NCBI GenBank assembly: GCA_963783375.1
Contig: CAWANH010000029.1
Coordinates: forward strand, 224,001 to 288,000
Length of the DNA: 64,000 nucleotides
Direction of reading: 5' to 3'
Source: Candidatus Eiseniibacteriota bacterium
GTDB taxonomy: Bacteria; Eisenbacteria; RBG-16-71-46; JABDJR01
Under the pieces are notes generated by a model. The model saw only the letters and a program-made list of their open reading frames with translations. It did not search any database and was not told the DNA's origin. This document shows, one piece after another, positions 5,335 through 10,066 of this stretch (position 1 is the stretch's first letter; every line of letters begins with the position of its first letter). Both the position numbers and the translations under genes were made by a program.

Positions 5335-7929
5335 ATGATCGGACGCCGGATCGCTCAATACGAGATCCTGGAGCAACTCGGCGCGGGGGGGATGGGCGTG
5401 GTCTACAAGGCGCGGGACACGCGCCTCGATCGCCTGGTGGCGATCAAGTTCATCTCCCCCCGCTGGGGGGGCGATCCCGAGACCCACGCGCGGTTCCTCC
5501 GCGAGGCGCGCGCCGCCTCCGCCCTGGACCATCCCAACATCTGCGCCGTCCATGCCATCGAGGAGACCCCCGAGGGGGAGGTCTACATGGTCATGGCGTA
5601 CTACGAAGGAACCCCGCTCGACCGGCTCATGAGTGCGGGTCCGCTGTCCCTGGGGCGGGCGGTGGGGATCGCCACCCAGGTCGCGGCGGGCCTGGCGCAG
5701 GCTCATCAGAAGGGGGTGGTTCACCGTGACGTGAAGCCCTCCAACATCCTCCTCACCCCCGAGGGCACGGTCAAGATCGTCGACTTCGGCCTGGCCATGA
5801 TCGCCGGGGCCGAGGTCCTCACCCTGAGCGGGACTTCCCTCGGCACTCCCTCCTACATGTCCCCGGAGCAGGCGGCGGGAAAATCCGGCGACCGTCGGGC
5901 CGACGTGTGGGCCCTGGGGGTTCTCCTCCACGCCATGCTCGCGGGCGCTCCTCCCTTCACCGGCGAGAGCATGCAGTCGATCCTCTACGCCGTCCTCACC
6001 GCGGAGCCGCCGCCCCTCACCGGAGCCGGTATCGAGGCGTTCCCGCTGCTGAAGGAGATCCTGGACCGGTGTCTGGTCAAGGACCCGGCCCGGCGCTATC
6101 CCGACGCGGGCGCCGTCCTCGCCGACCTCCGGCGGCTGTCCGCCGAGATCGACCGGCGGGGGCCGGCCGGCGAGGTTCGGTCGGCCGCCCTGAGCGCCGC
6201 GGGAACGGTGGTTCTCGACGGCTCCTCCCGGCCGAGAGCGAACCGCCCGGGCCGGAGGCGGTGGATCATGGGGGCGACCACCCTGCTGGCGATCGCGGCT
6301 CTGGGCTGGGCGAGCCTCCGCATCGCCCAGCGAGGCCCCTCCGAAGCGCTCCGGGTCGCGGTGCCGCTCCCCGCGGTTACCGCCGATCCCGCCGACCCCG
6401 ACACCGCCGCGGTGGCCCAGAGCGTCCGGCTCGCCCTCACCCGCGGGCTCCTCTCCCTGAAGGGGGTGGTCCCCATCGATCCCTCGTCGTACCGGGACCC
6501 CGGCACCACCCCGATCGAGATCGCCCGCACGGTGGGGGCCGACGAGGTTCTGGTCGCCGCGGTGACCGGCTCCGCCCAGGACTGGCGGGTGGTGCTCCGG
6601 CGCATCGACGGAACCACCGGCGGCGACGCCTGGGCCCGGGAATTCACCGTTCCCAAGGACGCCTCGCCGCTTCAGCTTCCCAACGTGGTCCTGGCCCAGT
6701 TCCGAAACGGCTATCCGAAGCTCGAACCCAAGCCGGGGGGAACCGTTCTCGACGTACGGTCGGAGGATTACGACACGTTCCTCCGCATCCAGACCGCGTT
6801 CCATCGTACCGGTGGAGCCGGGGCCGATCCGGCGGACCTGCTGGAGAAGATCGCGGCGGTCGAGAAGTCCTCGCCGGCCTTCCTGGAGGCGTATCTTCTC
6901 GAGGCGGAGATCGCGCGCTACCTCTACGACCTGAACAAGACCCCGGCGATGCTCGATCGCGGAGCCGAGGCCGCGCGCGCCGCGGCCCGGCTCGCTCCCC
7001 AGGATCCCCGCCCGGTGGCCGACCTCTTCGACCTCGCCCTGCGGACGTCCGACCTCGACCGCGCGAAGGCCGAGCTCGACGATCTGGAGAAACTCGATCC
7101 CGGCAATCCCGCGCTCCTCCTCAAGCGCTCGGTCCTGGCCGAGCGGGCGGGGGATTCGGAGCGGGCGTACGCCCTCATGCGACGGGCGACCGCCCGCGCC
7201 CCCTTCCGAGGCTACCTCGAGGCCCAGGCCGAGCTGGAGTACCGGCTGGGGAAGGTCGAGGAGGCCCGGGCCGATCTGGAGCGGATCCTGGGCATGGCCC
7301 CCGGCTATCTCTTCGCCGAATCCAAGCTGGCCCAGATCGAGCTTCTGTACGGCGATCCCCGGCGCGCCGAGATCCTTTACGAGGACCTCGTGAATCGCTC
7401 ACCGGGGAACTCGGCGCGGCATACCAACCTCGGTCTGGCCCGCGAACTCCTGGGCAAGTACGAGGCCGCGGCGGATGAATTCCGGGCCGCCCTCGCCCTG
7501 GCCCCGGGGAATTCCACCATCATGCTCAACCTGGCCGATTCCCAGGCGATGCTTCACCAGGACCGCGCCGCCGACTCCCTCTATGCCCGGGTGATGGTCC
7601 TCGCGGCCCAGGATCCCGATACCTCCAGCGCGGACAACCTCCTGATCCGGGCCCAGTGTCTCGCGCATTTGGGCCGGAGCGAGGCGGCGGTCGCCACCAC
7701 CCAGGAGGCCCTCCGCTCCGCCGCCGACGATTCGGAAGCGCTCTACATCGCCTCCCTGGTCTACGCGGTGGTGGGGGACCGCGCGTCGGCCCTGGTGAAC
7801 GCCCGGAGCGCCCTGGAGAAAGGCGTTCAGGGAAGATGGTTCGGGTTGCCCTTCTTCGATCCGCTCCGCTCCGACCCGGCGTTCCGGGCGCTTCTCGGGA
7901 AGGACTCCGCCGGAGGCGCTATCCCTTGA
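5335..7929 (+). CDS. Membrane-anchored Hanks-type Ser/Thr protein kinase with C-terminal TPR region
   Basis: LGAGGMGVVY, VAIK, HRDVKPSN, DFGLA, YMSPE and DVWALG; a TM segment WIMGATTLLAIAALGWASL; helical TPR-like repeats; terminal FDPLRSDPAF motif. Confidence 0.93.
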   Translation: MIGRRIAQYEILEQLGAGGMGVVYKARDTRLDRLVAIKFISPRWGGDPETHARFLREARAASALDHPNICAVHAIEETPEGEVYMVMAYYEGTPLDRLMSAGPLSLGRAVGIATQVAAGLAQAHQKGVVHRDVKPSNILLTPEGTVKIVDFGLAMIAGAEVLTLSGTSLGTPSYMSPEQAAGKSGDRRADVWALGVLLHAMLAGAPPFTGESMQSILYAVLTAEPPPLTGAGIEAFPLLKEILDRCLVKDPARRYPDAGAVLADLRRLSAEIDRRGPAGEVRSAALSAAGTVVLDGSSRPRANRPGRRRWIMGATTLLAIAALGWASLRIAQRGPSEALRVAVPLPAVTADPADPDTAAVAQSVRLALTRGLLSLKGVVPIDPSSYRDPGTTPIEIARTVGADEVLVAAVTGSAQDWRVVLRRIDGTTGGDAWAREFTVPKDASPLQLPNVVLAQFRNGYPKLEPKPGGTVLDVRSEDYDTFLRIQTAFHRTGGAGADPADLLEKIAAVEKSSPAFLEAYLLEAEIARYLYDLNKTPAMLDRGAEAARAAARLAPQDPRPVADLFDLALRTSDLDRAKAELDDLEKLDPGNPALLLKRSVLAERAGDSERAYALMRRATARAPFRGYLEAQAELEYRLGKVEEARADLERILGMAPGYLFAESKLAQIELLYGDPRRAEILYEDLVNRSPGNSARHTNLGLARELLGKYEAAADEFRAALALAPGNSTIMLNLADSQAMLHQDRAADSLYARVMVLAAQDPDTSSADNLLIRAQCLAHLGRSEAAVATTQEALRSAADDSEALYIASLVYAVVGDRASALVNARSALEKGVQGRWFGLPFFDPLRSDPAFRALLGKDSAGGAIP

Positions 7930-8359
7930 ACGGACCCGAGGAGGGATCGTTCTGGATCTTCGGGTCCCCGAGGAACGGCGCGCCGTTGTAGTTCACCTGA
8001 ATGGTGTATTTGTACTCCTGGGGATCGGCTCCCACCGGGAGGTGATTGTTGTCCAGCACGATCAGGTCCGCGCCCTGCCGGTGGGGCTCGAAGAGTCCAT
8101 GGGGCGGAGACGGACTGAAGCTGATGCCGGACAGACTGGCTCCGGAGGTGCTGTCGGTGGTGAGCGTGAAGGTGATCCTGGCGCTCTGGCCGGCGGGTTG
8201 GGAGGCGATCACCACGTCGCCGCCGTTGGCATCGGGGAAGGTCACCGTGCCCTGGCCGTCGGCATAGGTGAACTTGACCTGGATCGTGGCCTGGTTGACG
8301 CCCCTGCCCGGCGCGCCGGGCAGGTCGCTCTTGAGATGGGGTGCCTGAGGCTTTTCCAT
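7919..8359 (-). CDS. Hypothetical beta-rich protein, DP-EP (DUF1888)-like
   Basis: 146 aa with SD AAGGAG and ATG start. Alternating beta-strand pattern and C-terminal YKYTIQV..DPKIQNDP. The family call rests on motif resemblance only. Confidence 0.7.
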   Translation of the reverse strand: MEKPQAPHLKSDLPGAPGRGVNQATIQVKFTYADGQGTVTFPDANGGDVVIASQPAGQSARITFTLTTDSTSGASLSGISFSPSPPHGLFEPHRQGADLIVLDNNHLPVGADPQEYKYTIQVNYNGAPFLGDPKIQNDPSSGPFKG

Positions 8360-8470: not shown

Positions 8471-8511
8471 AAAGAAAACGGCCCCGCCCCCGGACCGGGG
8501 GAGCGGGGCCG
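8471..8511 (-). terminator. Rho-independent terminator after icd
   Basis: Minus-strand GC hairpin CGGCCCCGC..GCGGGGCCG followed by TTTTCTTT. Confidence 0.75.
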
Positions 8512-8534: not shown

Positions 8535-9878
8535 CTACATCCGGTCGATGATGGCCTGCCCGAACTCCGAGGACTTGAGCTCCCGGACGTCCTTCCGGCC
8601 CTCGGCCACCATGAGCCGGGCCAGGTCGTAGGTGACCTGCCCGTCGGCGATCGCCTTCTGCATGCCGGAGAGCACCATCTCCGCCGCTTCGTGCCACCCC
8701 ATGTGGTGGAGCATCATCTCCGCGGAGAGAATCAGGGACCCGGGGTTCACCTTGTCCTGGCCGGTGTACTTGGGGGCGGTCCCGTGGGTGGCCTCGAACA
8801 CCGCGACCTCGTCCCCGATATTGGCGCCCGGTCCGAGGCCCAGGCCGCCCACCAGGGCGATGGCCGCGTCGGAGAGGAAGTCCCCGTTCAGGTTCGGCGT
8901 GGCCAGCACGTCGTACTCGCCGGGACGGGTCTGGATCTGCTGGAAGATGGAGTCGGCGATCCGGTCCTTGACCAGGATCTTCCCCGCGGGCATCTTCCCG
9001 CCGAGCTCGTCCCACAGCTTCTTCTCGGTCACCGTCCGGTCCCCGAACTCCTCCGCCGCCACCTCGTAGCCCCACTTGGCGAAGGAACCCTCGGTGAACT
9101 TCATGATGTTCCCCTTGTGGACCAGGGTCACGGTGGGGAGTTGGTTGTCCACCGCCCACTGGAGAGCCTTCCGCACCAGGCGCTTGGACCCGGTCACCGA
9201 GATCGGCTTCACCCCGATCCCGCTGTCCGGACGGATCTGGCGGCCGGTCTTCTCCTTGATGAGCTGGATGATGGCGGTGGCCACTTCGCCCCCGCGCTCG
9301 AAGTCGTGGCCCGCGTAGACGTCCTCGGTGTTCTCCCGGAAGATCACGAAGTTGACGTTCCTCGCGTACTTGTTGGGGGCGGGCACCCCCTCGAAGTACC
9401 GGATGGGGCGGATGCAGGCGTAGAGGTCCATGGCCTGGCGGAGCCCCACGTTGATGGAGCGGAAGCGTTCGGCCACCCCGTCGGACTTTCCGCAGGCGTC
9501 GCAGGTTTCCCCGTGATACTGCTGATGGGCGCAATGGAGGCAGACGTGGGTCTCCTCGCCGATGGGGGTCGTGAACGGCCCCTTGATGGCCACCTTGAGA
9601 TGCTTGATGACGTCCACCGACTCCTGGGGGAGGACCTCTCCGTAGTGATGGAGACCCTCCAGGCCGCAATAGACCGGGCACCATACGATCTCCCGGTCCC
9701 CGCCGTAGGCCTTCTTCACCGCCGCCTCGACCACCTTCTCGGTGACCGGGAAGATGTCGAGCCCGATGCCGTCGCCCCTGAGTTTTCCGATGATGGGACG
9801 GCTTCCCACGTTGAGATTCCCGTCCTGGACGGTGATGAGATCCCCCTCGGGGATGGTGACTTCCTTGAATGTGGGCAT
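8535..9878 (-). CDS. icd: NADP-dependent isocitrate dehydrogenase with a CxxC-x9-CxxC insertion
   Basis: GDGIG, KGPFTTP, RSIN..LRQAMDLYACIRP, FRENTED, VTLVHKGNIMKFTEG, NLNGD, EATHGTAPKY and VTYDLAR. True ATG at 9878 with SD GGAGAGG; the long upstream ORF extension is spurious. Confidence 0.96.
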   Translation of the reverse strand: MPTFKEVTIPEGDLITVQDGNLNVGSRPIIGKLRGDGIGLDIFPVTEKVVEAAVKKAYGGDREIVWCPVYCGLEGLHHYGEVLPQESVDVIKHLKVAIKGPFTTPIGEETHVCLHCAHQQYHGETCDACGKSDGVAERFRSINVGLRQAMDLYACIRPIRYFEGVPAPNKYARNVNFVIFRENTEDVYAGHDFERGGEVATAIIQLIKEKTGRQIRPDSGIGVKPISVTGSKRLVRKALQWAVDNQLPTVTLVHKGNIMKFTEGSFAKWGYEVAAEEFGDRTVTEKKLWDELGGKMPAGKILVKDRIADSIFQQIQTRPGEYDVLATPNLNGDFLSDAAIALVGGLGLGPGANIGDEVAVFEATHGTAPKYTGQDKVNPGSLILSAEMMLHHMGWHEAAEMVLSGMQKAIADGQVTYDLARLMVAEGRKDVRELKSSEFGQAIIDRM

Positions 9879-10066
9879 GATGATCCTCTCCAGATCGAGT
9901 GGGTTGACGACGCCGGGATCCGAATCCATGCGGATCGACCGGCAAGCCCGGGTGAATCCTCTGCGCCGTGTTCGGACGCCCCTAGTGGAGAACCCGGAAA
10001 GTAAAGACCGATTGAGTGTGCCGGGCCAGGGGAGCCGCGTCAAGCGGCGGAAGCGCCCCATGGCGT

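Follow-up and report, generated by a model that had tools for sequence, protein, structure and literature searches.

Results and Discussion

The icd Locus and the Enzyme It Encodes

The window (the whole stretch of DNA that was analysed, 64,000 nucleotides) carries on its reverse strand an icd gene whose product, judged from its sequence, is an intact subfamily-I NADP-type isocitrate dehydrogenase (IDH). The gene and its immediate surroundings comprise the following features.

5335-7929, forward strand: Ser/Thr kinase-TPR gene, convergent with the next ORF
7922-8359, reverse strand: ORF of 146 amino acids without a Pfam match, resembling the DP-EP family (cosine 0.94 in the ESM Atlas, where 20% of the cluster bears this family; the recognition score is low)
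8479..8511, reverse strand: intrinsic terminator-like hairpin of 13 pairs (12 of them G-C) with a T tail, 24 nt past the stop codon of icd (from the sequence)
8535..9878, reverse strand: icd (P0001), subfamily-I homodimer-type NADP-isocitrate dehydrogenase of 447 amino acids (from profile, alignment and fold)
8766..8786, reverse strand: HGTAPKY, the NADP-specificity segment (His365, Lys370, Tyr371), from alignment and conservation, with roles presumed from E. coli IDH
9885..9891, reverse strand: Shine-Dalgarno-like GGAGAGG, 6 nt upstream of the ATG (read from the sequence)

The terminator-like hairpin suggests that the icd transcript stands alone. The deduced product scored 527.2 bits against NCBIfam model NF005425 (cut-off 490) and 565.5 against TIGR00183, narrowly under the cut-off of 567.3, and its match to Pfam Iso_dh was broken in two around an insert. 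An AF2 model of the full product had a mean pLDDT of 85.8, and its best Foldseek match was the NADP-IDH of A. fulgidus (2iv0; TM 0.85, 48% identity, E 1.7e-48), which is also the closest solved enzyme in sequence (E 2.6e-134) but has no insert and has Glu where the window's IDH has Leu73.

Residues S141, N143, R147, R157, R181, Y188, K255, D309, D333 and D337 were all present; they are the equivalents of E. coli S113, N115, R119, R129, R153, Y160, K230, D283, D307 and D311, which have isocitrate, metal and catalytic roles. K370, Y371, Y417 and R421, the counterparts of the E. coli NADP-specificity residues K344, Y345, Y391 and R395, were kept in 114/114 full-length homologues. When 24 catalytic, loop and cofactor columns were compared over 107 rows (23 sequences with a nine-residue spacer in the insert, x9; 26 with a 14-residue spacer, x14; and 58 free of the insert), 17 columns were invariant, positions 102 and 139 depended on the group, and the other five varied in at most two rows. 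Position 102 was Phe in the x9 group and Leu or Met in the other rows. One divergent, long-branch carrier (P0209) had Arg-Arg in place of the NADP-pocket Lys-Tyr and Cys in place of Arg147, and retained the four insert cysteines.

Position and Make-Up of the Insert

The Ser113 loop of isocitrate dehydrogenase, a textbook enzyme, is also the textbook case of a bacterial phosphorylation switch: in E. coli, Ser113 binds isocitrate and is the residue phosphorylated by AceK. The insert of the window's enzyme lies in this loop, and its parts are as follows.

9465..9557, reverse strand: Cys4 zinc-ribbon-like insert of 31 residues (amino acids 108-138), replacing the Gly-Gly of the phosphorylation loop (from alignment and conservation)
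9531..9542, reverse strand: first CxxC knuckle (Cys113, Cys116), inside the core V-C-L-x-C-x3-Q (from conservation)
9492..9503, reverse strand: second CxxC knuckle (Cys126, Cys129), present in 118/119 loci obtained with a pattern that left this knuckle free
9456..9467, reverse strand: Arg138-Phe-Arg-Ser141, in which an invariant Arg ends the insert and the Ser that binds the substrate, equivalent to E. coli Ser113, comes after it; 117/117 complete loci read R[FY][RQ]S

The insert sits between TTPIG and FRSIN, with Cys113, Cys116, Cys126 and Cys129 spaced CxxC-x9-CxxC, as the initial annotation had proposed. Alignments to the solved IDHs of E. coli, P. aeruginosa and A. fulgidus agreed with this placement and broke exactly at the insert, query residue 107 matching E. 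coli 108 and query residue 139 matching E. coli 111, so that 31 residues replace two (net +29) and Ser141 corresponds to E. coli Ser113. E. coli Icd (1ai2, 3icd) thus has the catalytic and NADP residues in common with the window's enzyme and Gly-Gly in place of the module. Four cysteines had been counted correctly, but histidines number four (His111, His115, His118 and His122) instead of three, and the location given for the insert, 9456-9557, also takes in Phe-Arg-Ser, the insert proper covering 9465-9557. The genome of the window has one copy of the insert, and no solved IDH structure covered it among the 60 sequence matches listed.

Conservation and Authenticity

A search with the insert region matched 406 of 414 candidate clusters. 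In the query plus the 120 of these matches that were listed, with whole-protein identities of at least 72%, the pattern was caught in 119 of 121 sequences and all four cysteines were present in 119/119. This set had been chosen on the insert; a repeat search used residues 150-447 only, and among its best 120 matches four had no N-terminus and all the others (116/116) had CxxC-x9-CxxC, 81 of these 116 homologues being new with respect to the first list. The alignment of homologues that had been proposed as a check on cysteine conservation thus bears it out. The columns of the insert had a mean identity of 0.85, those of residues 1-98 one of 0.77, and those of the part used for selection (150-447) one of 0.88. 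In 72 full-length genes (that of the window and 71 of the 80 GTDB loci described below), pN/pS was 0.20 for the insert and 0.24 for residues 149-447, both values being uncorrected and from an insert-selected set. Within the x9 clade His118 was found in 178/182 sequences, and Gln119 and Glu108/109 were near-invariant; Arg138, which had not been selected on, was present in 222/222 de-duplicated carriers.

A contig from an unrelated DNA run covers 9112-9666, including the insert and both flanks, with 24 differences, and an RNA-library contig covers 9407-9614 with the insert and its flanks (two differences, depth 2.7; DNA carry-over is possible). Since both span the insert, misassembly is excluded and so, for the RNA-library contig, is removal by splicing. 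The contigs in the RNA runs were all of low depth and carry no information on expression level or strand. The insert is real and under selection. Chance or misassembly was rejected on the 406/414 clusters, the 116/116 homologues and the independent contigs. A self-splicing intron or intein was also rejected: the insert is in frame, its amino acids are conserved while synonymous positions change, the low-depth RNA contig keeps it, and intein end residues are absent from it.

Range of Carriers, Two Spacer Groups and Origin

Hundreds of related proteins carry the insert, and they come from uncultured organisms in at least eight phyla. A GTDB scan found 136 loci, and the 80 kept, all titled MAG, came from Gemmatimonadota, Eisenbacteria, Krumholzibacteriota, Acidobacteriota, Fibrobacteraceae, Deltaproteobacteria/Myxococcota, Planctomycetota and others. 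Presence was patchy (11/172 genomes of the window's own phylum and 8/301 of Gemmatimonadota). The two closest titled relatives, labelled Ca. Eisenbacteria, had inserts that did not differ from the ones in genomes of the same genus, and phyla were mixed within a clade of 100/99 support. The sequences suggest that the whole icd gene has spread between phyla by transfer.

A search of a 50% representative library gave seven matches, all IDHs or IDH fragments, one of which, a fragment from Elusimicrobia, had a spacer of 14 residues. From this fragment 11 further proteins were reached (Elusimicrobiota, KSB1 and unnamed sources); the x14 proteins aligned were 56-59% identical to the query. A metagenome DNA pattern which fixed only TTPxG-x4-VCLxC-x3-Q, leaving the second CxxC free, gave at least 119 loci, and all 119 read as the IDH loop. 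The second CxxC was found in 118 of the 119 listed loci, with spacers of x9 (79), x14 (38) and x13 (one); the sole exception, locus L165, has Cx4C as its second knuckle. R[FY][RQ]S closed the insert in all 117 complete loci listed. Histidine was absent from 36/39 long-spacer inserts, and since the x14 group keeps the module with almost no His, the insert histidines are not core ligands. The inserts of the two groups are homologous, with an hhalign probability of 98%.

In a quick tree of the 107 rows with the insert columns dropped, six insert-free rows fell among the carriers. A constrained tree uniting all 49 carriers scored 21 log units better than the quick tree, so the scattered insert-free rows were not read as losses, and its AU p of 0.67 means that the data permit a single gain. 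Insert-free enzymes exist at 70% identity to an x14 member. We infer that a small ribbon resembling rubredoxin or FmdB, originally a stand-alone protein, was inserted once, anciently, into this IDH lineage. No stand-alone donor was present in the 50% representative library, the module was not found in phage, plasmid and viral collections, and an ESM Atlas search for a stand-alone module gave no usable match.

Predicted Fold of the Insert

The AF2 model of the full protein had pLDDT values of 70-85 across the insert, and a model of the insert alone had a core pLDDT of 73-80. The insert is predicted to form a two-knuckle beta-ribbon with the fold of a rubredoxin-like zinc ribbon. The modelling that had been proposed predicted a ribbon, and with the conserved cysteines it supports the earlier assignment of a Cys4 ribbon to the Ser113 loop. 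Among 19 structural matches to the insert model, 12 were titled zinc fingers, mostly of the RanBP2/NZF type, and three more of the matched chains presumably carry such fingers; all 19 were weak (Z 2.0-2.6, under the level that the tool treats as meaningful), and Foldseek gave no match to the insert model at E ≤ 0.001.

RanBP2/NZF C4 fingers (1q5w, 2lk1, 2gqe, 7e62) were the commonest fold among these matches, Z being only 2.0-2.6. Their consensus is W-x-C-x2-C-x3-N-x6-C-x2-C, from which the insert departs in having His for Trp, Gln for Asn and a stretch of five residues where the consensus has six; one x14 insert scored 14.2 against the RanBP2 profile (PF00641), whose cut-off is 27. The FmdB ribbon (PF09723, TIGR02605) and the RCKP rubredoxin-like domain (NF045720) resemble the insert in their two CxxC knuckles and the aromatic residue before the first, but FmdB proteins are small and stand-alone and the window's ribbon is embedded in IDH. 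The x14 inserts matched the FmdB and RCKP families with E values down to 6.6e-5, all under the curated cut-offs (best FmdB score 22.3 bits, cut-off 34.4), and the window's insert was not among the FmdB-family matches listed. By hhalign to 26 FmdB sequences the x14 inserts reached 94% and the x9 form a weaker 81%. C2H2 finger matches of a combined insert profile were rejected, as they span the linker and one knuckle only.

The best PDB sequence match of the insert was a segment of SpCas12f1 (9i8y; E 0.0079), which ranked second in Foldseek. SpCas12f1 is described as having zinc-finger domains of about 30 amino acids (PMC12255294). Its zinc-finger repeats share the CxxC-x9-CxxC spacing and the His and Gln between the knuckles, but the host protein is unrelated and the match, which is weak, may be convergent.

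Two conserved CxxC knuckles joined by a variable spacer are what a rubredoxin-like C4 ribbon has, and from its sequence the module is likely a generic Cys4 ribbon holding one Zn ion. Zinc is the likelier metal by base rate for Cys4 ribbons; iron is possible because the sequence matches include rubredoxin-like families.

Helix 72-79 and Accompanying Changes in the Enzyme Body

9642..9665, reverse strand: helix 72-79 with Leu73, Leu76 and Tyr79, a likely docking surface for the insert (AF2 helix; residue frequencies with and without the insert)

Six body positions carry residues which are common to both insert groups and uncommon elsewhere: Leu73, Leu76, Tyr79, Phe139, Phe193 and Thr372. Leu73 was found in 23/23 x9 rows, 81% of the 26 x14 rows and 0/58 insert-free rows, which mostly have Glu; the corresponding frequencies (x9, x14, insert-free) were 96%, 92% and 5% for Leu76, 96%, 96% and 33% for Tyr79, and 87%, 96% and 19% for Phe139. 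The 222 de-duplicated carriers had Leu73 in 212, Leu76 in 215 and Tyr79 in 221 cases. In the AF2 model residues 73, 76 and 79 (spacing i, i+3, i+6) share one face of the helix. These frequencies, which may partly reflect shared ancestry, suggest that the module docks on helix 72-79 as a structural brace, and we infer that Val112 and Leu114, both invariant in the ribbon, are buried by the patch in which Leu has replaced Glu. The net charge differs between the two insert groups (-2.6 vs. +1.6), so they have no shared charged binding face.

Two other indications of contact were discarded. Mutual-information contacts between insert and body (residues 70-87) came from stem residue 136 in a subclade block and disappeared without that residue. 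Arg34 is invariant in near homologues, but the x14 group has Glu there in 18/40, and it was rejected as a general partner of the insert.

Role of the Insert

The reading that we prefer, with a probability of roughly 0.52, is that of an intact NADP-IDH in which a Cys4 ribbon, likely with one Zn, is likely docked on helix 72-79 and braces the loop that places Ser141. The four-cysteine mini-domain would fold as a zinc ribbon, likely holding a single Zn ion; the metal-bound ribbon would dock on the neighbouring helix, and once docked would brace the flexible loop which positions the substrate-binding Ser141. Its role would be constitutive and structural, tuning stability or loop closure, and not that of an on/off switch. 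The spacer varies between the groups while both knuckles stay. The near-invariant His118, Gln119 and Glu108/109 of the x9 clade seem to go beyond the need of a bare scaffold and are unexplained by bracing alone.

A redox or metal-availability switch is a possible but distinctly less probable role. Oxidation or metal loss would unfold the ribbon, displace the Ser141 loop and lower activity, tying NADPH output to oxygen or metal status. The insert stands directly ahead of the substrate-binding Ser, and one report describes the Ser113-equivalent loop as disordered in one apo structure and in contact with NADP and isocitrate when closed (PMC6313988). The closest relatives of the window's DNA came from soil and salt-marsh runs, and the weak matches of the insert include rubredoxin-like families. 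A gene of the heme-copper oxidase family (PF00115, which also includes NO reductases) was found in 36/50 carriers and was absent from the rest, a mixture because of which carrier lifestyle does not decide the mechanism. Against a switch, Cys4 ribbons are mostly structural, no conserved redox-partner or regulator gene lies nearby, and no extra His or Cys is conserved across both insert groups. The wider proposal of a widespread, undescribed IDH lineage with a regulator of its own, a metal-thiolate ribbon which would switch NADPH-producing TCA flux upon oxidation or loss of metal, and so without a kinase control the loop that is phosphorylated in E. coli, is no more than tentative.

Less probable still is that the insert serves, by analogy with the NZF/RanBP2 fingers that dock ubiquitin or Ran, as a docking knob for a partner protein or for higher IDH oligomers. 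These interaction fingers are its nearest structural neighbours and surface-type residues are near-invariant within the x9 clade, but the two insert groups are sharply different in the sequence and charge of their surfaces, and a stand-alone gene with a terminator, scattered over phyla, better fits a self-sufficient enzyme.

That the insert replaces AceK control, or shields Ser141 from phosphorylation, had been put forward in the initial annotation and now appears improbable. The search of the genome that had been suggested did not find aceK (PF06315) in the window's genome (97% complete), the E. coli control being detected; nor was AceK found in the 50 carrier MAGs tested out of the 80 carrier genomes. 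Among 301 Gemmatimonadota genomes, 54 had AceK (the kinase domain, e.g., in loci L115-L117) and eight had the insert, with an overlap of 0 against 1.4 expected, an anticorrelation that was set aside as not significant (p about 0.2, ignoring kinship). Isocitrate lyase (PF00463) and malate synthase (PF01274) were not found in the window's genome, and isocitrate lyase was present in 4/50 carrier genomes, so that a glyoxylate branch that could be switched is usually lacking. The E. coli host, by contrast, has both AceK and the glyoxylate shunt. The segment corresponding to that recognised by AceK also speaks against the proposal.

8964..9047, reverse strand: AceK-recognition-segment-like region, amino acids 278-305, of the A. 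fulgidus (class D) type (gapless alignment to 2iv0)

This segment aligned without gaps to A. fulgidus and with gaps to E. coli, which has another recognition segment, and it is not of class A; many insert-free relatives have a segment of the same length and type. Such segments have been classified, A. fulgidus falling in class D (PMC3521221), and AceK is described as inactive on the IDHs of S. tokodaii and A. pernix (PMC6313988). The IDH lineage was likely never an AceK substrate, and there would then have been no AceK switch to replace.

An altered substrate or cofactor preference, by which the enzyme would not be a plain NADP-IDH, is about as improbable or slightly more so. In its favour, the insert is placed at the loop that sets specificity, Phe102 replaces Leu in the x9 clade, and a second short IDH-like gene of the genome (L001) could cover the normal role, but the isocitrate-binding and NADP-specific residues are retained and the score exceeds the equivalog cut-off of NF005425. 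Least probable is a tolerated passenger, kept only since loss of a Cys would misfold it: the family does work without the insert, as is indicated by the enzymes without it at 70% identity to an x14 protein, but no clean loss occurred in 116/116 near homologues, pN/pS in the insert-selected set was 0.20 against 0.24 in residues 149-447, and the enzyme body has changed with the insert.

No description of an IDH with such an insert was found in the paper library searched, mostly at the level of listings and abstract openings. This agrees with the first reading of the locus, in which no such enzyme was known, and the insert-bearing IDH is apparently an undescribed variant of a known enzyme. An old, conserved, predicted metal-binding domain thus lies in the exact Ser113 loop and is absent from the solved structures and the literature searched. 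Were its role structural, an active-site loop would have taken up a whole domain and the host fold would have changed to match; were it a sensor, TCA control would have a new mode. The matter is simple to test, with one stand-alone gene for 447 aa, a standard assay and an icd-null E. coli host.

Neighbouring and Related Genes

By ORF clustering, no neighbour gene was conserved in more than about 10 of the 80 loci. In the two closest titled relatives a PEBP gene directly follows icd, and their 6-kb flanks contained neither the kinase-TPR gene nor the 146-aa ORF, so that this pair looks like a recent insertion. The adjacent Ser/Thr kinase was rejected as a partner of icd: it is absent from the relatives' flanks, and in an uncontrolled count generic kinases occurred in 10/80 loci at 36-44% identity.

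In the window's genome monomeric IDH was not found. A match to heme-copper oxidase subunit I (C28:355819-357160) was in two pieces with two TGA codons inside, which may be a frameshift or sequencing error. Three other PF00180 genes were present, namely a short IDH-like gene, LeuB and a homoisocitrate-dehydrogenase-like gene. The short IDH-like gene (L001:1495-2505; C29 near 992963) had PRK08997 as its best match (451 bits, cut-off 510), carries His where the TTP motif has its proline, and forms a long branch in the tree. The homoisocitrate-dehydrogenase-like gene (L003:1486-4005; C29 near 1534941) lies between two ORFs that we take, from their motifs, to be aconitase-like and citrate-lyase-beta-like.
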